Below, one piece after another: positions 8,450 through 34,433 of a DNA stretch of 39,827 nt. The notes below the pieces were generated by a model. The model did no database searches. It saw nothing but the letters and a program-made list of their open reading frames with translations, and was not told the DNA's origin. The first letter of the stretch is position 1. Every line of letters begins with the position of its first letter. A program made the position numbers and the translations under genes. This stretch comes from a virus. The stretch is taken from UHGV virus genome UHGV-2125590, one strand, 5' to 3'.

Positions 8450-8526
8450 TTACCTGATGGGTAATAAAATATTCTAAAATCTATTGATTTTGTGTCTTAT
8501 GTGGTTTTTAATTACCTCAGAGGTAA
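8450..8526. promoter_or_regulatory. two perfect TTACC-N5-GGTAA palindromes upstream of the DUF1064 gene
   Basis: Sites at 8450-8464 and 8512-8526; the second ends 3 nt before ATG 8530; TATGTGGTT motif at 8498-8506 between them. Confidence 0.5.
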
Positions 8527-8529
8527 ATC

Positions 8530-8874
8530 ATGAGAAAACAGATACAGGCTCTTGGTCGACTCAAAACAGGCCAGATGAACAAAACAGAATCTGCGTATTG
8601 CCAGCACCTTGAGCAGCGTAAACGTGCAGGGGAAATCGCCTGGTATCGATTCGAGGGTATCAAGCTGCGGTTAGCTGACAACACGTTCTATACGCCCGAT
8701 TTTGCTGTGATGCTCGCCACCGGCGAGATGGAACTGCACGAAGTGAAAGGTTTCTGGACCGACGACGCCAGAGTGAAAACAAAAGTCGCCGCAGATCAGT
8801 ATCCGTTCCGAATAATCGGGGTAACGGTTAAACCAAAGAAAGCAGGTGGCGGCTGGAACATCGAAGAGTTCTGA
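8530..8874 (+). CDS. DUF1064-family phage protein
   Basis: 114 aa; YRFEGIKLRL...YTPDF...HEVKG pattern recalled from DUF1064 prophage proteins. Confidence 0.55.
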   Translation: MRKQIQALGRLKTGQMNKTESAYCQHLEQRKRAGEIAWYRFEGIKLRLADNTFYTPDFAVMLATGEMELHEVKGFWTDDARVKTKVAADQYPFRIIGVTVKPKKAGGGWNIEEF

Positions 8875-8935
8875 ATCGACGATCTTTTTAGTTATCAATG
8901 TAATCAATAAGTTATGTGGATAAGCGAGGGTAAAG

Positions 8936-9634
8936 ATGGAAAGTAATATCAAAGGGTTAGTTTCCGCCGGGCATGAGATGGCTTCGGAACTGAAAGCAGA
9001 ATGTGGTGCCGTTGATATGCGCAGTGTGGCAAAGCTGATCAGCGATTTGGCAACGCAACTGGAAGTGCAACTGGTGCGTGCTAATGCGATGGCCGAAGAC
9101 CAGCAGAAAGCGATTGAGTCAATTAAGCAGGCTGATTCGGCTGTTAAGTTGGCACACGAGAAGTTTTCGGAGCTGGCAGCGGAGAATGCGGCGCTGAAGG
9201 CCGGGGCTATGTATTTCTCATATGGCTCTGAATTTAGTTTCGAGTGTCACAAAACTGCTGAGGAGGCTATCGCTGCTGCTGAGGCTGCAATTGACGACTA
9301 TAGAGGCGATGCTTGCGATGGATGGAGCGAAGAGGTCGAAAGCATTTGCTGGGGGGTAATTATTCAGCAGGCAACCAAGGTCGGTGAACGCAAGAAGAGG
9401 AAATGCGACAGAGTATCACCATGGATTGAAAGAGTTTGTGATTATGAGCTTCGACCTAATGTCGAAACCCCAGCCACCGATGCTTTCCTGGCTGAAATTG
9501 AACGCAAAGCAATCCGCAAGTTCATTAACAGCATTGAACACATCCTGCGTGACAAGTTGTCACCGTATGACACCGAAGAGATGCTTGAGGCTATGCGTAT
9601 TTTTCTGGAAGAACAGGGAGGTGAGCAAAAATGA
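8936..9634 (+). CDS. Ea22-like early protein
   Basis: 232 aa coiled-coil-rich N-terminus; GAGGG RBS; typical lambdoid Ea22-type composition. Confidence 0.45.
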   Translation: MESNIKGLVSAGHEMASELKAECGAVDMRSVAKLISDLATQLEVQLVRANAMAEDQQKAIESIKQADSAVKLAHEKFSELAAENAALKAGAMYFSYGSEFSFECHKTAEEAIAAAEAAIDDYRGDACDGWSEEVESICWGVIIQQATKVGERKKRKCDRVSPWIERVCDYELRPNVETPATDAFLAEIERKAIRKFINSIEHILRDKLSPYDTEEMLEAMRIFLEEQGGEQK

Positions 9635-9948
9635 CGATCACAAAACAACGTGTAGAAGAAATCATATCCCGTATTGAAATGTATGGTCATGGTGCCGGGT
9701 ATACCGCTGATGAGGTTTATGACCTTGCTGTACTGGCGCTGAATTTATCAAATATCGCAAAACTCAAGCGATACGAGCTTGATATGGATGGTTGTGACTC
9801 GTTCGGTCAGGATTGTGGCGCTGACATGACTGAAGATTCTGATGGCGATTATGTCCTGTTTGATGACGTGGTTAAGTTGTTTGAGTTTGATACAACCACT
9901 CAGAAGTTAGAAAGCCCAGCAAAGGAGGCAACCAGTGAGCAAGATTGA
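9631..9948 (+). CDS. hypothetical protein
   Basis: 105 aa; GGAGGTGA RBS; start overlaps upstream stop. Confidence 0.5.
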   Translation: MTITKQRVEEIISRIEMYGHGAGYTADEVYDLAVLALNLSNIAKLKRYELDMDGCDSFGQDCGADMTEDSDGDYVLFDDVVKLFEFDTTTQKLESPAKEATSEQD

Positions 9949-10507
9949 CTATCAGGCACTGCGTGAGGCGGCAGAACGTGCAATTCCGGCAATGGAACGC
10001 CTGTTAATGTTGCCAGTTGATGATGATTTGTTAAGTGAACAGGAACTTAAGGATTACGGTGTGGATATTGATGCGCTCAACGCCTTCAAATTTCTGACCG
10101 GACCAGAAACCGTGCTGGCGCTGCTGGATGAACGGGAAAGAAACCAGCAATACATCAAACGCCGCGACCAGGAGAACGAGGAAATTGCGCTAACGGTAGG
10201 GAAGCTGCGCGTTGAGCTGGAAGCTGCAGAGAAGCGCATTGCAGAACTGGAAGCCGAACCTGTAAGCCAAACTTACAAGTTGAACGAGCTGTCGGGCAAC
10301 TATCCGGTAACTCCGGATGGTTGGATAAGCTGTAGTGAGCGAATGCCCGCTCAAGATGATTGGATTTTAATTTATTCAAAGCACGGCGAGTATATGGCAG
10401 GACAGGTACAAGGGGAATACGTGGAGTTGAGCGACGGCACTTTATCGTGGTTAGGGAACGCCTTGTACTGGATGCCTCTACCGGAACCGCCGCAGGAGGT
10501 TAATTGA
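9935..10507 (+). CDS. Ead/Ea22-like protein with DUF551-like C-terminal domain
   Basis: GTG start with AAGGAGG RBS; DYQALREAAE N-terminus and C-terminal WISCSERMP...W motifs. Confidence 0.6.
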   Translation: MSKIDYQALREAAERAIPAMERLLMLPVDDDLLSEQELKDYGVDIDALNAFKFLTGPETVLALLDERERNQQYIKRRDQENEEIALTVGKLRVELEAAEKRIAELEAEPVSQTYKLNELSGNYPVTPDGWISCSERMPAQDDWILIYSKHGEYMAGQVQGEYVELSDGTLSWLGNALYWMPLPEPPQEVN

Positions 10508-10701
10508 TGGTCTCCTTCGCGAAATATACGATTATTGACTGGATAGCATTCATTCAGGTTTTGCTCATCTGGTTTTATATGGCTTACAGGAGTGGACAGT
10601 GGATTGTCAGTGTAGCCTGTAGCAATGGATGGCGTTGGTGGAACCGAAAGAATAAAAAAAGCGCTGGCCTTGGCTTCGTTTTACGAAGCATTCAATCTTA
10701 A
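10507..10701 (+). CDS. small hydrophobic membrane protein
   Basis: 64 aa; ATG 10507 after GGAGG; hydrophobic core IIDWIAFIQVLLIWFYMAY and basic C-terminus. Confidence 0.4.
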   Translation: MVSFAKYTIIDWIAFIQVLLIWFYMAYRSGQWIVSVACSNGWRWWNRKNKKSAGLGFVLRSIQS

Positions 10702-10784
10702 CAGTCTTCAGCCTGGTTCTGTCGTTGTAGTCACCACTCAAAGCGGCATGACGATACAAATTCACAAGCCAAAGGAGGAAGGTC

Positions 10785-11066
10785 GTGGCTAACCTGCAAC
10801 TTGCCGTTAAAGGTGAATACTTCGATGCCATGATTCGCGGAGAGAAAACGGAAGAGTATCGCCTGTGTAATGACTACTGGAATAAGCGAATTATGTTCCG
10901 CGAGTATGACCGCCTGATTATCACAAAGGGATATCCGAAGCGCGACGATTCCAGCCGCAGAATTGACGTCCCGTATGACGGATATGAAATCAAGACAATC
11001 ACACATCCGCACTTCGGCGATAAACCGGTAAAGGTGTTCGCTATAAAGGTGAATATTGATGGCTAA
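10785..11066 (+). CDS. ASCH/DUF3850-like domain protein
   Basis: 93 aa; GTG start with AAAGGAGG RBS; GEYFDAMIRGEKTEEYR pattern resembling ASCH-fold proteins. Confidence 0.45.
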   Translation: MANLQLAVKGEYFDAMIRGEKTEEYRLCNDYWNKRIMFREYDRLIITKGYPKRDDSSRRIDVPYDGYEIKTITHPHFGDKPVKVFAIKVNIDG

Positions 11067-11397
11067 ATCAGCAGCAGAGCGCAAAGCCGCTCAGAGAGCC
11101 AGACAAGCTGCATCTGGTGTGCGTAAGCTGGAAATTGTGCTTGATGCTCAGGAAATTGAAATGCTGGAGCGTAACTGTGCCACGCGTCGCCCCGGGCGTG
11201 CGCCTTACGAATTTGGTGAGTATATAGCGTTACTGATCCGCCAGGATGATGCACGCGTGCGCGGGCGTATAAAATCGATCAGCAGAAAATGTTGCGGTAA
11301 GTGCGGCGAGAGAGTTCCAGTTAATTCATGCCCGTGTAATGGTGACTCGCAATGCTGGGTGACTAAAGGCTGGCATGAAACGAAATTAATAGTGTGA
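11059..11397 (+). CDS. hypothetical protein with basic N-terminus and Cys-rich C-terminus
   Basis: ATG 11059 with AAGGTGA RBS; C-terminal CCGKCGERVPVNSCPCNGDSQC. Confidence 0.5.
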   Translation: MAKSAAERKAAQRARQAASGVRKLEIVLDAQEIEMLERNCATRRPGRAPYEFGEYIALLIRQDDARVRGRIKSISRKCCGKCGERVPVNSCPCNGDSQCWVTKGWHETKLIV

Positions 11398-11405
11398 CAT
11401 GTCAC
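11394..11405. repeat. 12-bp perfect palindrome GTGACATGTCAC (copy 1 of 3)
   Basis: Exact string; flanked to give 14-mer TGTGACATGTCACG; between early genes and terS. Confidence 0.9.
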
Positions 11406-11414
11406 GAAGGTGTT

Positions 11415-11627
11415 ATGCCAAAAATACGCTACGACCTTGAAGATATGAGAGATAACTCAGCAAATTTTCCGAAAGAGGTTAAATTTCTCATGCATAAGTA
11501 TGGTTGCGCCAGGAGGGATATAGTTATCGACAGTCAGCACCCTTGCGGCGAGGATGTAATTTTCATTCGCGGTAAATGGGAAGGGTATCTTGACGAGAGT
11601 TTTTACGATGAATTTGATGGACTTTGA
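11415..11627 (+). CDS. hypothetical protein
   Basis: 70 aa from ATG 11415 (AAGGTG RBS); GTG start at 11394 lies inside the palindrome and is less likely. Confidence 0.4.
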   Translation: MPKIRYDLEDMRDNSANFPKEVKFLMHKYGCARRDIVIDSQHPCGEDVIFIRGKWEGYLDESFYDEFDGL

Positions 11628-11669
11628 ATACTGCCGCCAACTATGGCGGCTTTATTTTGCATGTTACTA

Positions 11670-11684
11670 TTACCACAACGGTAA
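11670..11684. promoter_or_regulatory. perfect TTACC-N5-GGTAA palindrome upstream of terS
   Basis: ATTACC-ACAAC-GGTAAC; imperfect second copy at 11686-11700. Confidence 0.5.
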
Positions 11685-11701
11685 CTATTACCACGGTGGT
11701 T

Positions 11702-12298
11702 ATGATGCCTGCTGAACCTAAAACCTATAAACGCAAATCAACGCAATTTAAGCCGCTCACAGCAATGCAGGAGGCTTATTGCCAGTCATACATCAAAACG
11801 CCTGAAAACCAGACTCAGGCAGCGATTAACGCAGGATTCTCCCCAAATACAGCGGCAGTTAAAGCCAGTGTCATGATGCGCGATGAACGCATTCAAAAAC
11901 GGATTGCCGAGCTGATGGAGGAGCGCAACAAACGAATGCGCGTCAGTGCTGATTACGTTCTCATGCGCCTGGTGGAGATCGATCAGATGGACGTGATCGA
12001 CATCCTCAACGACGATGGGAGCCTTAAACCAATCCGTGAGTGGCCGAAAATCTGGCGCACTACGCTTAGTGGCTTTGATCTGTCATCGACCATCATGAAC
12101 ATGAACGAGGATTCGATAGAGACAATCCTCAAAAAAATTAAATGGCCTGACAAGGTGAAGAACCTTGAGCTGATTGGTAAGCATGTTGATGTCAACGCGT
12201 TCAAAGAACGTCTGGATGTTAATGTGAATGTGACAATTGCTGATCGCATAGCAGCAGCCAGGAAGCGACTCAAAGAACGTCAGGATGGTAATCAGTGA
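11702..12298 (+). CDS. terS: terminase small subunit
   Basis: Immediately upstream of and overlapping TerL; start moved to ATG 11702 because the ORF-track N-terminal extension contains the palindromic motif and low-complexity sequence. Confidence 0.6.
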   Translation: MMPAEPKTYKRKSTQFKPLTAMQEAYCQSYIKTPENQTQAAINAGFSPNTAAVKASVMMRDERIQKRIAELMEERNKRMRVSADYVLMRLVEIDQMDVIDILNDDGSLKPIREWPKIWRTTLSGFDLSSTIMNMNEDSIETILKKIKWPDKVKNLELIGKHVDVNAFKERLDVNVNVTIADRIAAARKRLKERQDGNQ

Positions 12299-13770
12299 CA
12301 GATACAGCGTTATCTCCTGAAGAGCAGTTGATCGAGGATATTGCAGGGTTCACTCACGATCCGCTTGGCTATGCCCTCTATGCGTTCCCGTGGGGGGAAG
12401 AGGGTACTGAACTGGCACATGCCACCGGTCCACGTCAGTGGCAGGCCGATGCGTTCCGAGAGATACGTGATCACCTGCAGAATCCAGAGACGAGATATCA
12501 GCCGCTTATGCTGGCACGTGCTTCTGGTCACGGTATTGGTAAATCCGCATTCATCTCAATGCTGATCAACTGGGGCATGTCCACTTGCGAGGATTGTAAG
12601 GTCGTGGTGACCGCCAACACCGACAACCAGCTACGAACGAAGACCTGGCCGGAAATTATCAAGTGGTCGAACCTTGCTATCACGAAAGACTGGTTTACCT
12701 GTACCGCTACCGCGATGTACAGCAATGACCCTGGGCACGACAAGCGGTGGCGTGCTGACGCAATACCCTGGTCTGAGCACAACACTGAGGCGTTCGCCGG
12801 ACTACACAACGAGCGCAAACGCATCATCGTGGTGTTTGATGAAGCGTCGAACATTGCGGATCTGGTGTGGGAAGTTGCCGAAGGTGCGCTAACGGACGAA
12901 GACACTGAGATTATCTGGGTGGCGTTCGGAAACCCGACGCGTAATACCGGACGTTTCCGTGAATGTTTCCGCAAGTATAAACACCGCTGGAAAACTGCGC
13001 AGATTGACAGTCGGACGGTGGAAGGTACCAACAAACAGCAGTTGCAGAAATGGGTTGATGACTACGGGGAAGACAGCGACTTCGTTAAAATCCGTGTGCG
13101 TGGCATATTCCCTGATGCATCTGAATTGCAGTTTATCCCTACCGGTCTTACTGACGAGGCAATGAAACGGGTGGTAACCGCTGCGCAGGTTGCACATGCT
13201 CCGGTGATAATCGGCGTTGACCCGGCATACTCCGGCGTTGATGACGCTGTGATATACCTGCGGCAGGGGCTACACAGTAAGGTGCTGTGGACTGGCAACA
13301 AGACTACCGACGATCTGATTATGGCGAAGCGTATCGCTGACTTTGAAGACCAGTATCAGGCTGACGCGGTGTTCATCGACTTCGGTTACGGAACCGGTTT
13401 GAAGTCAATCGGTGACGGCTGGGGTCGTACATGGCAACTTGTTCCGTTCGGTGGCGCGTCTACTGACCCGCAGATGCTTAACAAGCGTGGGGAGATGTTC
13501 AACTCATGTAAGACATGGCTGAGGCTGGGCGGCATGCTGGATGACCAGGAAACAGCGGACGACCTGTCGACGGCAGAGTACAAAGTTCGCGTGGACGGTA
13601 AAATCGTTATCGAACCGAAGGAAGATATCAAAGAGCGACTTGGGCGTTCGCCGGGGAAAGGCGATGCGCTATTGCTGACGTTTGCTTTCCCGGTCTCGAA
13701 ACGCATAAATATACCTGGACAGCAAAGCCAGCAGGGAAGGGCCATAACGGATTATGACCCTTATGCTTAA
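12295..13770 (+). CDS. terL: terminase large subunit
   Basis: 491 aa; Walker-A-like ARASGHGIGKS; size and position typical; GTG start overlapping terS stop. Confidence 0.85.
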   Translation: MTDTALSPEEQLIEDIAGFTHDPLGYALYAFPWGEEGTELAHATGPRQWQADAFREIRDHLQNPETRYQPLMLARASGHGIGKSAFISMLINWGMSTCEDCKVVVTANTDNQLRTKTWPEIIKWSNLAITKDWFTCTATAMYSNDPGHDKRWRADAIPWSEHNTEAFAGLHNERKRIIVVFDEASNIADLVWEVAEGALTDEDTEIIWVAFGNPTRNTGRFRECFRKYKHRWKTAQIDSRTVEGTNKQQLQKWVDDYGEDSDFVKIRVRGIFPDASELQFIPTGLTDEAMKRVVTAAQVAHAPVIIGVDPAYSGVDDAVIYLRQGLHSKVLWTGNKTTDDLIMAKRIADFEDQYQADAVFIDFGYGTGLKSIGDGWGRTWQLVPFGGASTDPQMLNKRGEMFNSCKTWLRLGGMLDDQETADDLSTAEYKVRVDGKIVIEPKEDIKERLGRSPGKGDALLLTFAFPVSKRINIPGQQSQQGRAITDYDPYA

Positions 13771-13820
13771 TCCGCTGGTGGGGATAATACTGCTGATATC
13801 CTCTGGTGAGGATAAAACAA

Positions 13821-13840
13821 AGCCAGCTCATCGGCTGGCT
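13821..13840. terminator. bidirectional hairpin terminator between terL and the minus-strand moron
   Basis: AGCCAGC / GCTGGCT stem; T-rich on both flanks. Confidence 0.4.
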
Positions 13841-13844
13841 GTTT

Positions 13845-13856
13845 GTGACATGTCAC
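13845..13856. repeat. 12-bp palindrome GTGACATGTCAC (copy 2 of 3)
   Basis: Exact string; same 14-mer TGTGACATGTCACG as copy 1. Confidence 0.9.
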
Positions 13857-13860
13857 GGTG

Positions 13861-14235
13861 TTATTGCTCGCTTAACTTCTGCTTCAGCAAGTAACCTTCG
13901 AGCATCCAGATTTTGTTTACAGCATTCTGCCGGGCAATCTTCCGACCAATTTCTGCATCAAAGTTTTCCGGGCTTGCACAGGCACTCTCTCCGGTAACGG
14001 TGAAGCCATTCTTCAGTACCAATACGCAGAAAGTGAGAAGGTGCAGAGCATCAGGGGTGGCTTCGACATAAGGCTCCGGATTATAAATAAGGTCATCTTC
14101 TTTAGCCTGGTGGTCACCCTGCGCAGCAGTGAAAAAATGCTCACTGCAAATGAGGCCTTCAATTTTCTCGGGTGTTACACGCGGAGCGGTTTTGCCTTTC
14201 TCAACGATTTCTTTTTCGATTTGCTGGTCGTTCAT
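13861..14235 (-). CDS. phage gp49 / Sf6 gene 66-family protein (moron)
   Basis: 124 aa on the opposite strand to the late operon; family recalled from prophage annotations, not verified. Confidence 0.5.
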   Translation of the reverse strand: MNDQQIEKEIVEKGKTAPRVTPEKIEGLICSEHFFTAAQGDHQAKEDDLIYNPEPYVEATPDALHLLTFCVLVLKNGFTVTGESACASPENFDAEIGRKIARQNAVNKIWMLEGYLLKQKLSEQ

Positions 14236-14346
14236 AATCTCACCTTAAAAAAATGCCCGGCGAACCTGGCGAACTGGAAGCAATGAGTTATGCCTTCCGT
14301 GGCTGTACGGGTTTACAGCATGAAGTCATCGCAATGGCGTCCTGCT

Positions 14347-14390
14347 GTAAAAAGGGCGGTGATAGTCCTTCAAGGGAAACTATCACCGCC
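14347..14390 (-). terminator. strong rho-independent terminator downstream of tRNA-Arg
   Basis: 12-bp stem GGCGGTGATAGT / ACTATCACCGCC followed by T-run on the minus strand. Confidence 0.55.
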
Positions 14391-14433
14391 AAGCACCTGG
14401 AACTTCTGGCATCACGGTCCTTAGGCGTGATTC

Positions 14434-14510
14434 TGGCGTGGCATGCAGGATTCGAACCTGCGACCAACCGCTTAGAAGGCGGTTGCTCTGTCCAACTGAG
14501 CTAATGCCAC
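14434..14510 (-). tRNA. tRNA-Arg (anticodon UCU)
   Basis: 77-nt cloverleaf derived by hand: acceptor GTGGCAT/ATGCCAC, D-arm GCTC/GAGC, anticodon stem ACCGC/GCGGT with loop CT-TCT-AA, T-arm GCAGG-TTCGAAT-CCTGC, encoded CCA. Confidence 0.85.
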
Positions 14511-14832
14511 AACGCTGAGAGCACTTAGCCTGTTAAGGCGCCACACTTTGTCGCGGCTCCATAAATGCTCTCATCGTTGTACCCTCGTCTCTTCCGAGGC
14601 GTCACACCGAATCGCCGGGATGGTGAATCCCCGTGCGCGGAATAAAACCGCTCGACTTGCACATTCCGGCTACCTGGTTCGTTTGCCCGAGCAAGGGAGG
14701 GTGCCCCTTAAACGTATCCAGACCGCTATCGGCGCATGTGCCATACGCCGTACTGCTCAAAATAAAAGCTCACTCCACCTGTTCAATTTAACGACAAGCC
14801 AGTCAGGTTAATAACCGGAATGAACCCTTTGC

Positions 14833-14847
14833 TTACCTGAAAGGTAA
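14833..14847. promoter_or_regulatory. perfect TTACC-N5-GGTAA palindrome upstream of the portal operon
   Basis: TTACC-TGAAA-GGTAAT; TATGTGGTT at 14891-14899 downstream. Confidence 0.5.
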
Positions 14848-14937
14848 TAATTTGTGCGTTAAATGTCAACTATCTACGATAAATAAATCATATGTGGTTA
14901 AATTGGTAATAATTTAATTGCGTACGGAGTCATTGAT

Positions 14938-15144
14938 ATGTGCATGGGTAGCTCACCGTCAGTGCCTGCAACACCAGAAGTTCAGGCAGCACCACAGGAG
15001 CAGGATGCCGCCGTTGTTGATGCCCGCGACGAAGAAACTCGTCGCCGTCGCGCTGCTGCTGGTCGTAGTTCTACGCTGCTTACCGGTTCTCAGGGCGACA
15101 CATCAACCGCTAATACCAGCGGTAAAACGCTACTTGGTCAGTAA
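14938..15144 (+). CDS. hypothetical small protein preceding portal
   Basis: 68 aa; GGAG RBS with the same CCGGAGTCATTGA(A/T)ATG context as the portal start. Confidence 0.5.
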   Translation: MCMGSSPSVPATPEVQAAPQEQDAAVVDARDEETRRRRAAAGRSSTLLTGSQGDTSTANTSGKTLLGQ

Positions 15145-15158
15145 CCGGAGTCATTGAA

Positions 15159-16838: not shown

Positions 16839-17131
16839 CAGATTACGAAGACGATCAACTGAAAGAAGAAAACGCCCGTAAGCAACGTGACATGGCACAG
16901 CGTGAAATTGATGACATTTGCTTTGTCATGAGCAGTGAACAGGGGCGTCGCGTTGTCTGGTCGGTGCTGGAGAAAGGTCGTGTGTTTTCCGCTATCTCAC
17001 CGATGGATGCTATGGCAATGGCATTTAATGAGGGGCAACGCAATCTGGCGCTGGAACTGTTTCAGCGCGTTATGGCGCATTGCCCTGAACAGTATTTGAA
17101 GATGGCCAAAGAGGCCAGTGAACAGGAGTGA
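16835..17131 (+). CDS. hypothetical head-assembly protein
   Basis: 98 aa; ATGA overlap with portal stop. Confidence 0.5.
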   Translation: MTDYEDDQLKEENARKQRDMAQREIDDICFVMSSEQGRRVVWSVLEKGRVFSAISPMDAMAMAFNEGQRNLALELFQRVMAHCPEQYLKMAKEASEQE

Positions 17132-17133
17132 TC

Positions 17134-17829: not shown

Positions 17830-17843
17830 GAGAGGAAATGACA

Positions 17844-18830: not shown

Positions 18831-18881
18831 CGCCTGTTATTAACCTGTGGGTCGTAACAGACCCACTAATGGAGAAAGAAG

Positions 18882-19319: not shown

Positions 19320-19329
19320 GGTGATATCG

Positions 19330-19659: not shown

Positions 19660-19677
19660 GCCTCGCGAATCCGACAA

Positions 19678-19698
19678 GGGGCTTCGGCCCCTTTATTG
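19678..19698 (+). terminator. rho-independent terminator after the capsid cluster
   Basis: AGGGGC-TTCG-GCCCCT followed by TTATT. Confidence 0.55.
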
Positions 19699-19709
19699 CA
19701 GGAGTGTAT

Positions 19710-26631: not shown

Positions 26632-28430
26632 GTTACTTTGGCCTTAATCCAGTAAACCAGAATCAGCAACTTGACGAAGCAGCATCAAATCCAGCGGGCT
26701 TTAACAGCGATGTTGGTTTTTTCGACAATGCTGTAGGAGCGGCATTGTCTGGTTTGTACTCCGGGCTGGTGGCAAAGCCAGATCAGTTGCTATGGGCAGG
26801 GATGGATAAAATCGTATCCCCGATTGCTCAGTTTATTAACGAAAACACCTCGCTCAATGATACTTCAGTTTCATACATTGCCGAGCAGAGAAAACTAGCA
26901 GAGCAGCAGGTTAAGCGGCTGACGCCTGATGCCGCGACAACCGGAACCGCCGGGCAGGTTCTTTATGGGTTGTTCGATATGGGCGGGCAGGCTGTTGTCG
27001 GTACAACGCTCGGTGGTCCTGTCGGAGGTGCGGCGGCGGTAACTTCGCTACAGGGTTTTTCTGAGTTTGAACGGCTGACAGCACTGGGTGTTGATTTCAG
27101 GACGGCGCAGGAAGCGGGATTAGTGCAGGGCATTACTGCTGGTGCCGGAACACTGATCCCTATGAGCCTCGGGTTACGTGCTGGTGGTGCGCTGGCGGAA
27201 GGTGTGGCGGCTCAGCTTGCGCGGACGGGTGAGAGTTCAGTGCGACGCGCCGCAGCAACAGCAGTACGTGCAACGCCAGATATTGCCTATGCCGCAGGTA
27301 CAAATATTGCGTTCGGTATGGCACAGCGTGGGCTTACTGCAAAAACACTTCGTGATGGTGGCTATAGCGAAATGGCTAACCAGTATGATGTGTTGGATCG
27401 ACAGGCAATTGCTATTGATGCTGTTCTTGGGGTGGCGTTTGGTGGTGTCGGCAGATTTATTAACTCTCGCGGCGAGTCTACAAACGCACCAAATTTTTCA
27501 CCAGTTGATATCGATGCTGCACTGGCGGCGAATGCCGCTCATCATGCTGAAATTGATATTGCGCCCGGCGTGCCGATCAACGTGCTTTCGCGCAATTCTC
27601 ACATTCAGGCTCTGCGAAAAGCTATGTCTGATGTTAGCCAGGGGAGACCTGTAGACGTTGCCAGCATTGTTGAGTCTGCATCTTTCAGTGAAATTCCTGG
27701 GCGCAAGAGTCTGCTGTCTCAGGCAGTTAATGAGGCTCTGTCATCTGTAGATGATGGAGTAACGGCGCGTGCTATAGAAAATCGGTTGCTTGAAGAACAG
27801 GCCGCGCAGCTTTTGCCGCGTGGAGATAGACAGGTTTACCAGTCTGAAATCGCTAATAGCCAACGAATTATTGAAAATCTCACTGAACAGCGTGCACAAA
27901 TTCTTGCAGAAGAGCCAACCGGTAGCGGTAAAGCTTTGTCTCGTGCTCGATCAGATAAACAGGCCAGACTTCGCGATATTGATCAACGAATCCGGCAGGC
28001 ACAAGAACGCCTGGAATTTTCCCGTAACGCGTTGGCACCGCACGAGCCTGGCGGTCAGCTTTTTGAAGCTCGAGCAGAACTGGCTCGGAGACAGCAGGCA
28101 GAAAGTGAACTTAATGCTCAGGCTGTTTCATTCTATAAAACAGCAGAGGTCAGGACGCCAGACGAAGTAGCTCCTTTTGAGCCTGATAAAATATTGCAAC
28201 AGGCAGAACAAAAAATGATGTCAGATAAGGCAGGAGATATTGATCTGCGCATAGCTGAAGACTCGCTGCTTGAATCACCTGACATGATAATCACCGTGCT
28301 GGATGATGATGGTAATCCACAATCGCGCAGCGCGCGTGAAGTACTGGATGAAGCGAACAGGGAAAGTGAGCAGGCAATACAGGATTCAAGCCTGTTTGAT
28401 GTCGCTGTGGCGTGTTTCTTGAGAGGTTAA
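26628..28430 (+). CDS. internal virion / DNA-ejection protein
   Basis: 600 aa; Gly/Ala-rich N-terminal region and coiled-coil C-terminus. Confidence 0.5.
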   Translation: MSYFGLNPVNQNQQLDEAASNPAGFNSDVGFFDNAVGAALSGLYSGLVAKPDQLLWAGMDKIVSPIAQFINENTSLNDTSVSYIAEQRKLAEQQVKRLTPDAATTGTAGQVLYGLFDMGGQAVVGTTLGGPVGGAAAVTSLQGFSEFERLTALGVDFRTAQEAGLVQGITAGAGTLIPMSLGLRAGGALAEGVAAQLARTGESSVRRAAATAVRATPDIAYAAGTNIAFGMAQRGLTAKTLRDGGYSEMANQYDVLDRQAIAIDAVLGVAFGGVGRFINSRGESTNAPNFSPVDIDAALAANAAHHAEIDIAPGVPINVLSRNSHIQALRKAMSDVSQGRPVDVASIVESASFSEIPGRKSLLSQAVNEALSSVDDGVTARAIENRLLEEQAAQLLPRGDRQVYQSEIANSQRIIENLTEQRAQILAEEPTGSGKALSRARSDKQARLRDIDQRIRQAQERLEFSRNALAPHEPGGQLFEARAELARRQQAESELNAQAVSFYKTAEVRTPDEVAPFEPDKILQQAEQKMMSDKAGDIDLRIAEDSLLESPDMIITVLDDDGNPQSRSAREVLDEANRESEQAIQDSSLFDVAVACFLRG

Positions 28431-28435
28431 ATTAA

Positions 28436-30910
28436 ATGAGACAGGAATGTATACAAGCGGTCCAGCAGGCGGCGCAGCGCACGTTAACGGCGCGAGAAAT
28501 ACAGAACATTGAAGACCGCATTTATCGAAATATGCGCTCCATTGCTCGTGATGACCCGATGTCGTGGAGACAACTTTCCGAATCAGAGCGGCTATATCGT
28601 GCAGCACAATTGGCATCTGAAGAATTACAGCGAGAAGCGGCATTAAAGAAACGTCGTGTGGCCCTCACTATAGCCGCACGTCAGAGATTGGATAAATTTA
28701 TCAATAGCTATCAAGGGGCTGATGGGAAACTTGGCGCTCTTAACCGTACTATTGCTTTTAATGCAGACGGTAAATCGAATTTCCTCTCTGTTGAGTCCAG
28801 AACAAAAGCCACTCGTGATTATGCATTGAGTCAATTGCAAGAGGCATTTGAAGCAGTTGATCCTCGCTTTTTTGGCCTGTTTGAAGATGAAGCTGGCGTG
28901 CGTGACCTGGTATATGAAATGCGAGGGCAAAATACTGGCAATGCTAAAGCAAGAAAAGGTGCTAAGGCGTGGAGAGAAGTTACAGAGCTGCTGCGCCGCC
29001 GGTTTAATGATGCTGGTGGGGACATTGGCTATCTCGAAAACTGGGGGATCCCTCAACATCATTCTATGGAAAAGGTTGGGGCGGTATCAAAGGATAAGTG
29101 GGTTGGCGATGTTATAGGTAAGCTGGATCGCAAATATTATACCCGAGCCGATGGACAACTGATGAACGATGCCGAGTTGTCTGCATTTCTTGGAGAGGCT
29201 TATAACACGATCGCTACTGGTGGGCTGAATAAGCTTACTGATACCGGAATGCGAATTTCCGGCGCACGTGCTAACCGTGGTAATGCATCACGACAGATAC
29301 ATTTCAAAGATGCAGATTCCTATCTCCAATATCAACAACTTTATGGTGATCGCTCTCTATGGGAAATCATGGTCGGTCACCTGGAAGGTATCAGTAAAGA
29401 TATTGCTCTGGTGGAAACATATGGTCCAAACCCAGATCATGTTTTCCGCTCCCTTCTTGATCAGGTTAAGGCAGAAACGGCAACAGCTAACCCGAGTAAA
29501 ACCGGTAAAGTCGAGCGGCTGGCGAACAACACAGAGAATCTGTACAACTTTATTTCCGGAAAGACACAGCCTGTAGCGAATCCGCACATCGCGCGATGGT
29601 CTGACAATATCCGCAACTGGCTGGTTGCCAGCAGACTCGGATCCGCGTTGCTGTCATCGTTCTCTGATCTTGGAACCATGTATCTGTCTGCGAAGGTTAC
29701 CAACCTTCCAATGAACCAGTTATTCCGCAACCAGCTTGAAGCTATGGACCCAACGAACCGTACAGAACTTGCGCGGGCGCGCCGCGCTGGTCTGGCGATG
29801 GAATCTCTACTTGGCAGCGTTAACCGCTGGGCGATGGATAATATGGGGCCGTCAGTGTCTCGTTGGGCGGCAACGGCGGTAATGCGTGCCAGTGGGCTTA
29901 CAGCATGGTCAGATGCGCACAAGCGCGCCTATGGCGTAACCATGATGGGAAGCCTGGGAGAAGTAGTGTCACGGACACCAGACCTTCGTAGCCTCGATGA
30001 CTCTGATTTTCGTATCCTGAAAAGCAAAGGGATTACTGACACAGACTGGAGCGTATGGAAGCTGGCGCAACAGGAGGACTGGGGGAACGGTAATAATACG
30101 ATGCTGACACCGGAAAGCATTATGCGTATCCCTGATTCAGCAGTTAAACATCTTGGTGAGTCTGAACGCGTGAAATTTGAGGCAATGCGTAAACTGCTCG
30201 GTGCCGTAACTGAAGAAGTTGATATGGCTGTTATTACACCGGGAGCACGTGAGCAACTGATAACCGGTTCTGGTATTCAGCGTGGAACATGGAAAGGTGA
30301 ATTAACGAGAAGTGTTTTCCTGTTTAAATCGTTCCCTATCTCGGTGGTTATGCGTCACTGGTCACGCGCTATGGGTATGCCGTCTGCTGGTGGGCGTGCG
30401 GCATATATTGCGACGTTTATTGCCAGTACGACCATTCTTGGCGCTTTGTCGCAGCAACTTAACGACCTTGCGTCTGGTCGTAATCCTCGTGAGATGACAG
30501 GAGAAGATGCTGCTAAATTTTGGCTTGGTGCTCTACTGAAAGGTGGTGGTCTTGGCCTTTACGGTGACTTTTTATTGTCAGATCACACTAGGTACGGAAG
30601 CGGCGCGCTGGCGTCGATGCTTGGCCCGGTAGCTGGTCTGGTTGATGACGTAGTGAAGATTGCTCAGGGCATACCGTTAAATGCTGTGGAAGGGAAGAAT
30701 GAGCAGACTGGTGGTGATCTGGTCAAGCTGGGGAAAGGTCTGATGCCAGGTGCGAATCTCTGGTACTTAAAGGCGGCTCTCGATCACATGATCTTTAACC
30801 AGATGCAGGAGTATTTTTCACCAGGTTATTTGCGTAAAATGGAGCAACGTTCGAAGAAAGAGTTTAACCAGACATACTGGTGGCGACCTCAGGATGTCAC
30901 TCCGCAATAA
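28436..30910 (+). CDS. internal virion / DNA-ejection protein
   Basis: 824 aa; last large gene of the operon. Confidence 0.5.
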   Translation: MRQECIQAVQQAAQRTLTAREIQNIEDRIYRNMRSIARDDPMSWRQLSESERLYRAAQLASEELQREAALKKRRVALTIAARQRLDKFINSYQGADGKLGALNRTIAFNADGKSNFLSVESRTKATRDYALSQLQEAFEAVDPRFFGLFEDEAGVRDLVYEMRGQNTGNAKARKGAKAWREVTELLRRRFNDAGGDIGYLENWGIPQHHSMEKVGAVSKDKWVGDVIGKLDRKYYTRADGQLMNDAELSAFLGEAYNTIATGGLNKLTDTGMRISGARANRGNASRQIHFKDADSYLQYQQLYGDRSLWEIMVGHLEGISKDIALVETYGPNPDHVFRSLLDQVKAETATANPSKTGKVERLANNTENLYNFISGKTQPVANPHIARWSDNIRNWLVASRLGSALLSSFSDLGTMYLSAKVTNLPMNQLFRNQLEAMDPTNRTELARARRAGLAMESLLGSVNRWAMDNMGPSVSRWAATAVMRASGLTAWSDAHKRAYGVTMMGSLGEVVSRTPDLRSLDDSDFRILKSKGITDTDWSVWKLAQQEDWGNGNNTMLTPESIMRIPDSAVKHLGESERVKFEAMRKLLGAVTEEVDMAVITPGAREQLITGSGIQRGTWKGELTRSVFLFKSFPISVVMRHWSRAMGMPSAGGRAAYIATFIASTTILGALSQQLNDLASGRNPREMTGEDAAKFWLGALLKGGGLGLYGDFLLSDHTRYGSGALASMLGPVAGLVDDVVKIAQGIPLNAVEGKNEQTGGDLVKLGKGLMPGANLWYLKAALDHMIFNQMQEYFSPGYLRKMEQRSKKEFNQTYWWRPQDVTPQ

Positions 30911-30919
30911 GGATGAGAA

Positions 30920-31060
30920 ATGATTGCTTTTATTCTTGTTGTGTTTGCGCTTGTTGCACTTGGCGTTATGAACCGTAAATGTATCATTGATGATGGTGAA
31001 TTTGCTGTTGCAGTTATTTTGATATTATCTGGTGTAGCAGGGTACATAGGCTTGTCATAA
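30920..31060 (+). CDS. 46-aa two-helix membrane protein (holin-like candidate)
   Basis: Hand translation MIAFILVVFALVALGVMNRKCIIDDGEFAVAVILILSGVAGYIGLS; AAGGA RBS. Confidence 0.35.
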   Translation: MIAFILVVFALVALGVMNRKCIIDDGEFAVAVILILSGVAGYIGLS

Positions 31061-31067
31061 CGTGAGC

Positions 31068-31079
31068 GTGACATGTCAC
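31068..31079. repeat. 12-bp palindrome GTGACATGTCAC (copy 3 of 3, inverted flanks)
   Basis: Flanks give CGTGACATGTCACA, the exact reverse complement of the 14-mer at copies 1 and 2. Confidence 0.9.
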
Positions 31080-31106
31080 AGGCCGCTTTCGCGGCCTTGT
31101 TCTTTT
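31080..31106 (+). terminator. rho-independent terminator ending the structural operon
   Basis: AGGCCGC-TTTC-GCGGCCT followed by TGTTCTTTT. Confidence 0.5.
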
Positions 31107-31266
31107 AACGAATGCCACCGCCGCCCGGGCGGGAATCCGCAGAACGCCCACCGCAGCGGGAGCCGTCAGCGGCAGTATCGCTGTCGTGCTGACAACGACC
31201 GGCAAAGGCCTGAGTTGAAGCTACCAGAGACAACAAAACGAACAGTGCAGCAAATGCTTTTTTCAT
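31105..31266 (-). CDS. small secreted peptide (signal peptide plus about 31-aa Cys-containing mature part)
   Basis: MKKAFAALFVLLSLVASTQAFA then GRCQHDSDTAADGSRCGGRSADSRPGGGGIR; ATG 31266; no lipobox. Confidence 0.35.
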   Translation of the reverse strand: MKKAFAALFVLLSLVASTQAFAGRCQHDSDTAADGSRCGGRSADSRPGGGGIR

Positions 31267-31336
31267 TGTGAAATTTCCATCTATAAGCCACCTCAATGTG
31301 GCGTCAATGAGTGTAGCACTGACTTTTGTTTCGTCC

Positions 31337-31360
31337 ACAAAAAAGCCCGCGCTGCGGGCT
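31337..31360 (-). terminator. terminator after the 210-aa moron gene
   Basis: GCCCGC-GCTG-CGGGC with T-run on the minus strand. Confidence 0.45.
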
Positions 31361-31364
31361 TCTA

Positions 31365-31997
31365 TTAATGCAGTTTATCTTTGCTTATAACCAGTAGTCT
31401 GTGGGTATGCACATCTTTATCACTGCCCCAACAGAAATCAGCCCACTGGCTATAGAAATCATCCCATGATGTCATGAAGCTAAGAGGTCTATCTTCTTCA
31501 GAGCCATCTGAAACGTATACATTATATCCCGGGGTGTTTATAGCCCAAGAAATCATTCTTTCCCAGAATCTTCTCCCATCGATTGTTTGTTGCTCATCAG
31601 ATACAACGATCGCATATTGCTCTAGGAAGAACTGAAAAAAAATCTGAGGCAAACCATGAACAGCACGGTCATGAATAACATTAGGCGTACGCCATACCAT
31701 GATCTGCGTACATGTTCTTTTGGCTTCGACGATATCTTCCCGAAAGATTAACTTAACCGCATACACCGTTTCTGGAGTATCGCTGGTAGTAATCATTCTG
31801 TAATGATCGCCATTACAAGATTTTACAAGGCGATAACCATAAGGTGTTGTGAATCCCGGAAGAACGAAATCAACCACACCTTTCGCTAAGTAGCTTTCGG
31901 TGTGACTAGTGTTCTTCTCAGACATGTTCAGTTTTCTATCGAAATCTGCTTCTGGGATAATGTATGGCATCGCTTTTCTTGTTGTATTTGTTCTCAT
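31365..31997 (-). CDS. hypothetical 210-aa moron protein
   Basis: ATG 31997 with GGGAGGA RBS; own promoter region carrying the palindromic motif and own terminator; no family recognised. Confidence 0.55.
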   Translation of the reverse strand: MRTNTTRKAMPYIIPEADFDRKLNMSEKNTSHTESYLAKGVVDFVLPGFTTPYGYRLVKSCNGDHYRMITTSDTPETVYAVKLIFREDIVEAKRTCTQIMVWRTPNVIHDRAVHGLPQIFFQFFLEQYAIVVSDEQQTIDGRRFWERMISWAINTPGYNVYVSDGSEEDRPLSFMTSWDDFYSQWADFCWGSDKDVHTHRLLVISKDKLH

Positions 31998-32056
31998 TTC
32001 GTCCTCCCATGTTTGGCTACAGGACGCGTTTTGAAGGGAAGATTAAAAATGCTTTC

Positions 32057-32071
32057 TTACCCTTGAGGTAA
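32057..32071. promoter_or_regulatory. perfect TTACC-N5-GGTAA palindrome upstream of the 210-aa moron gene
   Basis: TTACC-CTTGA-GGTAAT. Confidence 0.5.
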
Positions 32072-32141
32072 TAGTACGCTATTCACCCCCAGTCTGCAAT
32101 CGTACAGAATTATTTAAAGGCACATCCCTGTGCCGCCGCCG

Positions 32142-32834
32142 TCAGAAGAACCCTGCTTTGTCGTTGATGTACTCCGCGTGAGTCTGGATATCACGCAGGC
32201 ATTTGCTCACACCGACGATGTAGCAGAACATGGTGGTCAGCTCCGCTGCAGCGCCCGATACATCATGCCCGTCTTCCTGTAACTGGTTCAGCAAATTCAT
32301 CAGCAGTGAGTTCTCCGTCAGGCCGAGAACACCAGACGGCGAATGAATCAGGCTGCGGTAGCCGGGCTTCAGCGGGGCACTGTAGGTTTTGTTCTCTATC
32401 TTCATCGCCTGCATTACTGCTGACGCCGTGGCGTTGGCTACCTGGTCGGCAACCATCTTTATGCGTTCTTCCTGCGGGAGCGAGTTTTTAATGTAACTTC
32501 CTGTGCGGCGGATCTGAGGAAGAACCTCACCTGTAACCCATTCAAGAAATCTGAATGCTCTCGTTCCCTCTGTCATTGCCTCTTTGCAACGCAGAATAAG
32601 GATGTAGAGACCTGATTCTGAAACGATGGATAGTTCTTGTATTCCACCAGGGGTCTGTATTGAATACAGCCCCTTTTTGTTCCAGCCTTTTTTATCAAGT
32701 TTTCTCGCTTGTGTAACATCAATATTCAAAGCATTGCACACATCTTTGGTGACAAACCAAGGTTCTCCGTCAATCATGAACATACGGATCTGGCAGGATG
32801 ACTCAAAGGAAAAGATGGAAGGTTTGGTATTCAT
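32142..32834 (-). CDS. Bro-N domain protein (antirepressor-like)
   Basis: ATG 32834 (AGGTGA RBS); N-terminal IRMFMIDGEPWFVTKDVCNALNI...GLYILI...LPQIRRTG is the Bro-N signature. Confidence 0.7.
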   Translation of the reverse strand: MNTKPSIFSFESSCQIRMFMIDGEPWFVTKDVCNALNIDVTQARKLDKKGWNKKGLYSIQTPGGIQELSIVSESGLYILILRCKEAMTEGTRAFRFLEWVTGEVLPQIRRTGSYIKNSLPQEERIKMVADQVANATASAVMQAMKIENKTYSAPLKPGYRSLIHSPSGVLGLTENSLLMNLLNQLQEDGHDVSGAAAELTTMFCYIVGVSKCLRDIQTHAEYINDKAGFF

Positions 32835-33101
32835 GGCGATCACCTTTGTAGTTAGGTTAATCACCACCGCTGAGACCAATCAGATGGTGGTGAACTGTGC
32901 AGAGTTGGTCTTACCGGCTACAAAGGAACCCGGCGCACCTTTCGGTGCCCCCACACAGCCCACCATAGAATAGGTGCGCTTTACACATAAAAAAACCGCT
33001 TATGCGGCATATGTGCCTCTGTAGTAATCCGGGAGACCAATCCCGGCACTGGATTTTGCCAGTGCCCGATTACTATGGCACAAGAGGAGTGCGATGTAAA
33101 T

Positions 33102-33209
33102 TTACCTCAAAGGTAATGATAAACGCGAAGAAATATTAAAATCAACCGTATTTGGTTGATTGGGTTTAACGCTTGATCACCTGAAAGCAAGATATTACCT
33201 TTAAGGTAA
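33102..33209. promoter_or_regulatory. two perfect TTACC-N5-GGTAA palindromes in the divergent promoter region
   Basis: 33102-33116 and 33195-33209, between the Bro-N gene (minus) and the 242-aa gene (plus). Confidence 0.5.
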
Positions 33210-33229
33210 TGTTATTGTGAGGAAAAGAA

Positions 33230-33958
33230 ATGGAAGTTTTCTGGATAGTTGTTGGTGTGGTTGCGGTGATTATTTACGTTATCAACCAGAACAAGACTAA
33301 GATCTCTGATCGTACGGTCGTTAATCATAACAAAACGATAAAGACCGAAGATGGGGAGATAACGATTAATCGTACACAGGTGATAGAACACACCTCTACT
33401 CAGTTTCAAAAAACTGGAGGTAATGCGCCTAATATTTCCGCACCTCCTGCTTATGATAGTGCGGTAATCCAGACATATTATAAACAGCAGGAGTTAGCAA
33501 AAGAGAGGCAACTGATTCAGCCAAAGCCGTTTACAGCTGAGCTTCCACCTGGAGTGTCAACGCGTCCGGCATATCATGGAAGATTCCCTGGTGGTGACAT
33601 ATCGTCTCAGTCATCTAAAAAAGCACCTCAGGCAGTATCAGAGCCAGCAAGAATACCTTCTGTATCGCCGCCAAAAGAAGAATCAGCTAACAGAGTTTCA
33701 AGTGGTAGCAAGCAGTGCTTGCGATGCAGAATAAACCTTCCATATGAAAAATTCAGGAAATCGTCAAAAAATCCAGATGGATTGACTAAGTGGTGTGCAA
33801 GGTGTCTCGATGGCCCAAAGAATACACGCCATATGAAGTGGTGCCCAATTTGTAATGTCCGCAGAAAACGAACCAGCTTTTACCCTAATAATCAAAATGC
33901 GGACGGCTTAATGGCATGGTGCAAAACGTGCTGGGATGAGCACAAAGCGAAACGATAG
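33230..33958 (+). CDS. membrane-anchored protein with tandem C-terminal zinc-ribbon-like repeats
   Basis: N-terminal TM helix FWIVVGVVAVIIYVI; two repeats of C-x2-C...DGL-x2-WC-x2-C; GAGGAAAA RBS. Confidence 0.55.
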   Translation: MEVFWIVVGVVAVIIYVINQNKTKISDRTVVNHNKTIKTEDGEITINRTQVIEHTSTQFQKTGGNAPNISAPPAYDSAVIQTYYKQQELAKERQLIQPKPFTAELPPGVSTRPAYHGRFPGGDISSQSSKKAPQAVSEPARIPSVSPPKEESANRVSSGSKQCLRCRINLPYEKFRKSSKNPDGLTKWCARCLDGPKNTRHMKWCPICNVRRKRTSFYPNNQNADGLMAWCKTCWDEHKAKR

Positions 33959-33981
33959 GCCGCTCTTGCGGCCTTTAAATT
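33958..33981. terminator. hairpin terminator between convergent moron genes
   Basis: GGCCGC-TCTT-GCGGCC followed by TTTAAATTT. Confidence 0.4.
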
Positions 33982-34238
33982 TACCGGGTTTGTTTTCGTA
34001 ATTGTTCGGCACAATAGTCGAGATGTGTTTGCAGATCCCGCATAGACATCTGTGAGCTGGTGACGTAGTTAATCAGTGCAGTCAGTTCGGCAAGTGGGCC
34101 ATCGACATTAAATCCATCCTTATCGAGATCCCGGAGTAATTTCATCAAGTGCGATCCCTCCACCAGTGACCTGACGCCTCCCGGCGTGTGAATCCTTTCG
34201 GTAAATCCGTCTTCCAGTGGATAGTGATACTGCTGCAT
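33981..34238 (-). CDS. small protein homologous to the C-terminal domain of the Bro-N protein
   Basis: 85 aa from ATG 34238 (GGAG RBS); aligns by eye to the last ~70 aa of the Bro-N protein (H.P.GV..L.E.S.LM.LL..L..DG..V.G..AELT...NYV......RD.QTH). Confidence 0.45.
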   Translation of the reverse strand: MQQYHYPLEDGFTERIHTPGGVRSLVEGSHLMKLLRDLDKDGFNVDGPLAELTALINYVTSSQMSMRDLQTHLDYCAEQLRKQTR

Positions 34239-34314
34239 CTTATCTTCTCCATGCAATAACTGTATATTTATACAGTAACAAATAATTTGTTTGCTATCCA
34301 GCACGTTTTGCAAA

Positions 34315-34329
34315 TTACCCGAAAGGTAA
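34315..34329. promoter_or_regulatory. perfect TTACC-N5-GGTAA palindrome between the small minus-strand gene and the tailspike gene
   Basis: ATTACC-CGAAA-GGTAAT; TATGTGGTT at 34361-34369. Confidence 0.5.
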
Positions 34330-34433
34330 TATCTATTCGTATTTACAGTCTTTCTATCCATATGTGGTTTTCCAGGTAATAGAATAACCAGATATGCGGC
34401 GCAACGGGTGCTGCGACTATCTGGAGATTTAAC

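Follow-up and report, generated by a model that had tools for sequence, protein, structure and literature searches.

A conserved promoter element with a candidate role in late-gene activation in a Uetakevirus prophage of Escherichia coli

Phages have solved the problem of directing host RNA polymerase to a later set of genes in several ways, and a few of these provide the closest comparisons for the promoters considered here. The middle promoters of phage T4 combine a MotA box near -30 with a sigma70 -10 hexamer and are read by MotA together with AsiA. Among temperate phages, activator-dependent late promoters are known from Mu (C), P2 and 186 (Ogr/B), and P1 (Lpa); their activator sites are dyad-symmetric and centered at approximately -43 to -55 (approximately -22 in P1), and a single small phage protein, produced earlier, recognizes the upstream element. 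The phages phiV10, SPC32H, and ε15 (epsilon15) of the genus Uetakevirus are in use as reporter and biocontrol phages, and the lysogeny switch of the genus, comprising Rep, Ant, and LexA, has already been studied; nothing on late-gene activation in Uetakevirus was found in the accessible literature. This article concerns a stretch of viral DNA of 39,827 nucleotides (UHGV virus genome UHGV-2125590; hereafter, the window), which is a Uetakevirus prophage of Escherichia coli, and within it the nine-base word TATGTGGTT, which an initial annotation of the sequence had noticed ahead of three genes. With a probability of roughly 0.55, TATGTGGTT is the core of an element, in its fuller form CATAT-NN-GGTT, by which factor-dependent late promoters are recognized.

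The word occurs exactly three times in the window, at 8498-8506, 14891-14899, and 34361-34369, always on the + strand, against an expected count of 0.23, and none of 100 shuffled sequences reached three copies. The nearest upstream TTACC-N5-GGTAA palindromes start at 8450, 14833, and 34315, so that 33, 43, and 31 nt separate the end of the palindrome from the motif ahead of the DUF1064 gene (start 8530), the portal operon (small gp3 gene, start 14938; portal, start 15159), and the tailspike gene (start 34434), respectively. The DUF1064 copy is followed after 4 nt by ATTACC (8511), and the portal and tailspike copies are each followed after 5 nt by GGTAAT (14905 and 34375). The initial annotation had described these positions, the palindromes upstream, the half-sites 4-5 bp downstream, and the genes that follow, all of which are confirmed. 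Recurrence of TATGTGGTT alone means little, because 432 different 9-mers recur at least three times on one strand of the window; TATGTGGTT is the only one of these with every copy 0-60 nt downstream of a palindrome, for which approximately 0.002 would be expected. One-mismatch copies also fall within genes, and Rfam returned no RNA family at the three sites. The CTAT(T/C) box that had been listed as a further shared component lies 17, 21, and 10 nt from the motif and, at the portal site, is not retained in relatives; with neither a fixed position nor conservation, it was rejected as a common element. Its copy at 8481 is part of an extended -35 sequence, CTATTGATT, and that at 14870 flanks a minus-strand TTGACA.

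Evidence for the proposed role comes from alignments of three intergenic regions, covering the portal site in 17 lineages (alignment A2), the tailspike site in nine phages (A3), and the lysis promoter in eight. The portal lineages are from E. coli, Salmonella, Enterobacter, Klebsiella, Scandinavium, Superficieibacter, Kluyvera, Pseudocitrobacter, Buttiauxella, Pseudescherichia, Erwinia, and Rahnella; searches with the portal protein yielded mainly near-identical relatives, and a scan of genomes at the species level supplied the useful diversity. At the portal site, where the element AATCATATGTGGTT (14886-14899, +) contains the nine-base word, the sequence (T/A)AT(G/A)TGGTTAAAT(T)GGTAAT is almost unchanged across the alignment while the DNA upstream diverges, and the columns (T/A)AT(G/A)TGGTT show little or no variation from E. 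coli to Rahnella. At the tailspike site, where the corresponding element is ATCCATATGTGGTT (34356-34369, +), the pattern T-CATAT--GGTT-----GGTAATA-A-T is kept in all nine phages, and CCATAT(A/G)TGGTT is found ahead of the lysis genes in all eight of the third set. Mean identity in the motif columns is 0.90 at the portal, 0.93 at the tailspike, and 0.92 at the lysis promoter, compared with 0.74, 0.67, and 0.59, respectively, in the stretch between operator and motif. Conservation above the flanks in related prophages, which had been proposed as a check on the motif, is thus found at the portal and tailspike, and fails at the DUF1064 site, where motif and flanks are equally conserved. The portal and tailspike promoters have in common the block CATAT-NN-GGTT-N5-GGTAA-TAnnnT. 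Each of 10 genomes contains exactly two copies of the composite [TA]AT-NN-GGTT-N4/5-GGTAAT, which lie in the sense orientation ahead of portal and tailspike, and at least 105 of the first 120 composite matches in IMG/VR precede gp3/portal or tailspike. In the close relative E. coli TUM13773 (L004, 49270-49290), what the lysis promoter has in common with those of other Uetakeviruses is confined to a 14-bp island, tCATATATGGTTTA, amid unrelated flanks, an arrangement that resembles a mosaic joint located at this word.

These conserved columns can be placed on a promoter. A hexamer of the form TAnnnT lies 10 bp after GGTT and is the only such hexamer at a constant distance at the portal and tailspike; in relatives, it reads TACAAT or TAAACT. 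In the Rahnella portal region, a 1-bp deletion shifts GGTAAT, yet the distance from GGTT to the TAnnnT hexamer (TATTTT) stays at 10 bp. At the portal, GGTAA and the candidate -10 hexamer TAATTT (14910-14915) form a block (14905-14915, +) that is invariant in the alignment, and transcription would start at approximately 14922, 16 nt before the gp3 ATG at 14938. At the tailspike, GGTAA and the candidate -10 hexamer TAGAAT (34380-34385) occupy 34375-34385 (+), with GGTAATA-A-T invariant, and a start at approximately 34392 would give a 42-nt leader before the ATG at 34434. By this predicted geometry, the 14-bp elements would extend from -36 to -23 and the nine-base motif from -31 to -23, GGTAA would span -17 to -13, and TnCATA would take the place of the -35, so that the promoter hexamers would be ATCATA-N17-TAATTT at the portal and TCCATA-N17-TAGAAT at the tailspike. 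TnCATA matches TTGACA at only three to four of six positions (three in both promoters of the window), and its non-consensus bases are invariant; a sigma70 consensus scan found no + strand promoter at either the portal or the tailspike site. The invariant non-consensus bases (C at -33, T at -31, GGTT, and GGTAA) are not expected of a plain weak sigma70 promoter. In the lysis promoter of relatives, the best -10 hexamer, TATGAT (TATAAT in phiV10), lies 7 bp after GGTT, and TGTAT replaces GGTAA. Portal, tailspike, and lysis promoters thus have CATAT-NN-GGTT and TAnnnT conserved, that is, a good -10, a poor -35, and a common upstream element, and since the three units are parted by terminators, each needs its own promoter. 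The initial annotation had suggested a shared, non-canonical, and possibly activator-dependent promoter class; this is supported for the portal and tailspike, with their conserved block and lack of a sigma70 scan match, extends to the lysis promoter, and is not supported for DUF1064.

Compared with the described systems, these promoters are like T4 middle promoters in having a non-palindromic 9-bp element in place of the -35, approximately 10 bp upstream of a TAnnnT -10, which is repeated before several units of what would be one temporal class. They differ from them in the sequence of the element, in belonging to a temperate podovirus, and in the weak TnCATA -35 that remains, and no MotA or AsiA homologue was found among the proteins scanned. 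The resemblance to Mu, P2, 186, and P1 lies in separate late operons with a good -10, a poor -35, and a common upstream element; here, however, the late promoters have an asymmetric element with its center near -28, and no Ogr, C, or Lpa homologue was found. Binding elements of lambda Q and of AlpA are likewise short, specific, and situated in the -35/-10 spacer of phage or phage-derived lysis and late promoters (PMC7969949; PMC9371919). Those systems, however, depend on a complete sigma70 promoter, on a pause element downstream, and on a Q or AlpA protein, and here all three are missing from what was found.

In the mechanism proposed, RNA polymerase with sigma70 would use the -10 hexamer (TAATTT or TAGAAT; TATGAT or TATAAT at the lysis promoter) together with the weak TnCATA -35, and a sequence-specific factor made earlier in infection would bind the conserved element, spanning approximately -33 to -23 and followed by the invariant GGTAA at -17 to -13 (at the portal and tailspike), and so permit initiation. 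The late timing, the existence of the factor, and the positions of the -10 hexamers and starts are predictions from the sequence. The palindromes are a separate system, which would control divergent or flanking early and moron promoters. The DUF1064 copy would lie within the spacer of an early-type sigma70 promoter, where, if it were bound at all, down-regulation would be more likely than activation.

The promoter ahead of DUF1064, here called P_R2, is probably of sigma70 type, with a -35 of TTGATT (8484-8489) and a -10 of TTTAAT (8507-8512) on the + strand, and TATGTGGTT (8498-8506) makes up the last 9 bp of its 17-bp spacer, at a predicted -21 to -13. The claim that no canonical -35/-10 pair at correct spacing is present is therefore not borne out at this site, which has TTGATT-N17-TTTAAT; the pair scores 8/12, under the scan threshold, and the homologous promoter PL scores 10/12. 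P_R2 is bracketed by two palindromes (8450-8464 and 8512-8526) that lie 62 bp apart, the second of which overlaps the DUF1064 Shine-Dalgarno sequence. PL (palindromes at 5389 and 5451) has the layout of P_R2 on the opposite strand, namely operator-16 nt-CTATTGAYW-22 nt-operator, and the two operators are exactly 62 bp apart in every phage that has the PL/P_R2 cassette (5389-5465 and 8450-8526 in the window), a spacing that fits one Rep tetramer bridging two operators. In relatives, the P_R2 motif position is occupied by TTTGTGGTT, TATATGGAT, AATGTGGAT, TTTATGGTT, or TTAGGGATT, and the motif columns have an identity of 0.81 against 0.81 in the flanks, so that there is no extra conservation in what is a highly conserved cassette. 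The cassette is absent from the Buttiauxella, Pseudescherichia, and Rahnella relatives, and P_R2 differs in several lineages, where it lacks the motif. A single promoter class for all three sites was therefore rejected, given that P_R2 has a sigma70-type -35/-10 pair and a motif without a footprint. The spacer of PL (minus-strand TTGACA-N17-AATTAT) holds a one-mismatch copy of the word, TATTTGGTT (5414-5422, +), in antisense orientation; TAT-N-TGGTT is present in the PL spacer of phiV10, Tyrion, BUCT554, and BUCT711 and is absent from the ε15 group and Kp4865-1.

The TTACC-N5-GGTAA palindromes are operators of an SPC32H-type tetrameric repressor, Rep. There are 11 copies in the window against 0.02 expected, and 8 to 11 perfect copies in every related phage examined; the GenBank record of ε15 already annotates them as repressor protein_bind features. 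The repressor encoded in the window (ORF 5526-6107, -) matches PDB 5D50, the SPC32H repressor, over its full length (E = 3.5e-42), and Rep is a tetramer that binds palindromic sites (PMC9638917; PMC9986798). The late-promoter element shares its intergenic regions with Rep operators, and its invariant GGTAA (-17 to -13) equals an operator half-site. It differs from them in that TATGTGGTT and its flanks do not form the 15-bp inverted repeat TTACC-N5-GGTAA, and in its varying distance to the operators; a one-mismatch scan found 15 operator-like sites in the window, none of which overlaps the motif. At the portal site, the operator-motif distance is 43 nt in E. coli and 31 nt in Rahnella. Since this distance varies by site and lineage, the composite architecture described initially is better viewed as a juxtaposition of separate units. 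A palindrome forming part of the late promoter was ruled out by the variable distance, by its annotation as a Rep operator, and by its assignment, at the portal and tailspike, to inferred divergent promoters. The portal-site operator (14833-14847) overlaps the -10 position of a conserved minus-strand promoter whose -35 is TTGACA (TGTCAA at 14864-14869) and which faces tRNA-Arg; this region (14833-14869, -), in which GTCAA and the operator half-sites are invariant in the 17 lineages, would be a divergent leftward promoter rather than the portal promoter. At the tailspike, the operator (34315-34329) and a LexA box, CTGTATATTTATACAG (34260-34275), make up the control region (34260-34329, -) of the divergent gene ant, whose product is 83% identical to ε15 gp19/SPC32H Ant. 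Ahead of terS, a strong intrinsic terminator (11633-11650) is followed by one perfect and one imperfect Rep operator (to 11702) with no recognizable promoter; read-through and antitermination are both possibilities for the expression of terS and terL.

The proximity of motif and operators lends itself to a different explanation, in which the motif is a repressive site that keeps or turns late and early promoters off and is bound by the cro-like protein or by Rep in a second contact with the GGTAA half-site. The positions concerned (-31 to -23 at the late promoters, -21 to -13 at P_R2, and the spacer of PL) are usual ones for blocking polymerase, the motif is always near a Rep operator, GGTAA is identical to the Rep half-site, and Rep has two helix-turn-helix (HTH) regions. 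Furthermore, the palindrome AACCA-N4-TGGTT is similar to the Rep operator, except that its ACC and GGT stand one base farther apart, and the cro-like protein weakly resembles the N-terminal HTH of Rep, albeit with a different recognition helix. This explanation is nonetheless unlikely: the operator-motif distance ranges from 31 to 43 nt, the lysis promoter carries TGTAT and not GGTAA, and at the tailspike CATAT and GGTT are fixed while their symmetry mates are not, which misfits a symmetric HTH dimer. It would also leave the activity of promoters with a poor -35 unexplained.

Slightly less probable again is a loading site for a processive antiterminator of the Q or AlpA type, which would carry polymerase through the terminators before terS and in the late operons. 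The motif lies between -35 and -10 at all sites, as do the binding elements of Q and AlpA (PMC7969949; PMC9371919), the terminator at 11633-11650 parts the P_R2 operon from terS with no promoter between them, and the late operon of ε15 contains a terminator. Against this, Pfam detected no Q-like protein, and antitermination gives no initiation where a good -35 is lacking; nor, by eye, do the portal and tailspike alignments contain a conserved -10-like pause element downstream of the predicted starts. The Phage_AlpA protein of the window (Pfam, 82 aa) belongs to the excisionase-like family of E. coli and not to that of the larger AlpA of Pseudomonas aeruginosa, in which the residues studied run to at least 142 (PMC9371919). 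The AlpA binding element was first proposed as GGGACG-N5-GGTA, and later structural work confined it to GGGACG (PMC7969949; PMC9371919); a link to this element through the AlpA of the window was rejected as a coincidence of names between two different protein families.

A site for a host protein (IHF, DnaA, CRP, or a nucleoid protein) that shapes these intergenic regions is improbable. The ε15 record predicts IHF sites beside the operators before portal and tailspike, and TGTGGTTAA at the portal agrees at 8/9 positions with the complement of the DnaA box TTATNCACA. The predicted IHF sites are, however, upstream of the motif and not over it, and the motif misfits the IHF consensus WATCAANNNNTTR in both orientations by manual comparison; the DnaA-like match needs variable flanks, with DUF1064 and tailspike both reading TGTGGTTTT (6/9), and the composite is restricted to these phage positions. 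Manual comparison likewise gave no fit to the consensus sequences of host sigma 32, E, 28, and 54 or to those of IHF, CRP, and DnaA, and these candidates were dropped. The least probable explanation is that the motif has no separate function and reflects shared ancestry or chance in AT-rich promoter DNA, for which the lack of a footprint at P_R2 (0.81 in motif and flanks), the many recurring 9-mers (432), and the one-mismatch copies inside genes might be cited, and against which stand the footprints at three non-homologous late intergenic regions in many genera, the occurrence of the composite exactly twice per genome, and the 14-bp island kept amid unrelated flanks in TUM13773.

For the factor-dependent late promoters favored here, three proteins of the window are candidate readers of the element: the phrog_536 protein (11059-11394), a PerC-like protein (2281-2580, -), and the cro-like protein. 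The gene for the phrog_536 protein, a "transcriptional regulator" of 112 aa, is one of the last upstream of the terminator in front of terS, with only a small unassigned open reading frame (ORF; 11394-11627) after it. The protein is conserved in all relatives, including those in Rahnella and Providencia. The N-terminal half has a strand-helix-helix pattern that is ribbon-helix-helix-like, and the C-terminal half contains invariant Cys79, Cys82, Cys91, and Cys93 (Cys99 nearly so) together with an invariant GWH. Homologues are found in N15 (gp46), phiKO2, and Yersinia P2-like, Vibrio, and Aeromonas phages; the position at the early/late boundary recurs in the Vibrio phages, and the Yersinia P2-like phages with phrog_536 also have a regulator in the Ogr position.

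The TGGTT word is also found in palindromic form. A search with AACCATATATGGTT, allowing up to two mismatches, gave four intergenic matches, at 6568, 14886, 33144, and 34356, the second and fourth of which are the portal and tailspike elements. The copy at 6568-6581 (+), AACCAAATCTGGTT, follows the terminator of the cro-like gene and overlaps the -35 TTGATC (6580-6585) of a conserved promoter, TTGATC-N16-CAAAAT (6568-6607), which lies after that terminator and a one-mismatch operator (6548-6562); the palindrome is conserved in phiV10, Tyrion, ε15, and Klebsiella phage Kp4865-1. The copy at 33144-33157 (+), AACCGTATTTGGTT, resembles the module at 6568 and is located between operators at 33102 and 33195, upstream of the leftward isrK/C4/ant module; it overlaps a TTGATT hexamer on each strand. 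Both copies are true palindromes, unlike the late sites. AACCATATATGGTT was also considered as a symmetric 14-bp operator, with which 6568, 33144, and some of the lysis and PL sites agree. At the portal and tailspike, however, the pattern of conserved positions is asymmetric; the idea was rejected for this reason, and the late element is not taken as a symmetric operator.

These additional sites invite a broader, speculative proposal, about as doubtful as the repressive site discussed above, in which one small phage protein, with phrog_536 as the best positional candidate, reads the TGGTT word everywhere and constitutes a single early-to-late switch. Such a protein would activate the -35-less portal, tailspike, and lysis promoters from approximately -30, shut PL and P_R2 from within their spacers, and affect the post-cro and c4/ant promoters from approximately -41; the offsets between these sites are whole helical turns.

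Several observations weigh against a factor-dependent late promoter, or against the factor suggested for it. No start-site, timing, or binding data for these promoters were found in the accessible literature. The best -10 lies at no uniform distance from the motif, with 10 bp at the portal and tailspike, 7 (or 0) bp at the lysis promoter, and 0 bp at P_R2. The genes terS and terL lack this promoter and are preceded instead by a terminator and two operators, and the TGGTT-containing palindromes near -41 of two other promoters mean that the reader may not be late-specific. With regard to phrog_536, no Pfam or PDB sequence match was obtained, the AlphaFold model is poor, with a confidence score (pLDDT) of 64, and a Foldseek search was empty; the Providencia relative encodes a homologue (58% identity) but lacks the motif.

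That relative, a prophage of Providencia alcalifaciens (L101) with a portal identity of 66%, has neither TTACC-N5-GGTAA operators nor the motif, and carries before gp3 a long inverted repeat, AAGATATACAATA...TATTGTTTATCTT (L101, 9632-9772). In the predicted tailspike leader of the window, a GC-rich hairpin (approximately 34396-34415) is kept in seven phages despite differing flanks; its changes are from G-C to G-U only, which gives no support from covariation. Rfam identified a C4 antisense RNA and an isrK small RNA at 32883-32970 (-) and 32989-33065 (-), directly upstream of an antirepressor-like ORF (32142-32879, -). Together these make up a c4-ant immunity module of the P1/P7 type, here within a Uetakevirus prophage, and the prophage appears to have two antirepressor systems, this module and the SPC32H-type small Ant (33981-34238, -) with its LexA box.

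The window as a whole has a Uetakevirus gene order (the ε15/phiV10/SPC32H genus). The integrase gene (193-1443) is followed by a leftward early operon and the repressor gene (5523-6107, -), then by the cro-like gene (start 6262) and the replication genes, which extend to DUF1064, and by a "nin-like" block between DUF1064 and terS. terS and terL start at 11624 and 12295, tRNA-Arg(tct) lies at 14434-14510 (-), and the gp3 and portal genes lead into head and tail genes that run up to 30910. An accessory block separates the tail genes from ant, beyond which lies the tailspike gene, and the lysis cassette is situated past the window end. The attP arms bear GGTGACGGTAT repeats and not the motif, and an excisionase role for the motif was dropped on these grounds. 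Over the head region, identity to phiV10-like phages of E. coli and to numerous E. coli chromosomes is 97-98%; most of this region is present in approximately 390 of 5,426 complete E. coli genomes, and the prophage adjoins guaA in the best-matching genome.

The element is not annotated in the ε15, phiV10, Tyrion, or SPC32H records, and no mention of it was found in the accessible literature, which excludes the ε15 genome paper and two SPC32H Rep papers. Conserved late-promoter motifs are a familiar type of feature, and the description of this one is a useful annotation and no surprise. It corrects the picture of these intergenic regions, in which operators and late-promoter elements lie side by side as distinct units, belonging to divergent promoters. 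Uetakevirus prophages are common, and a late-promoter consensus would improve promoter annotation in the genus; the consensus also offers a handle for finding the late regulator, and native late promoters would be usable in reporter constructs. A single early-to-late switch, if true, would be a late regulator of a new kind in a widespread genus of prophages.

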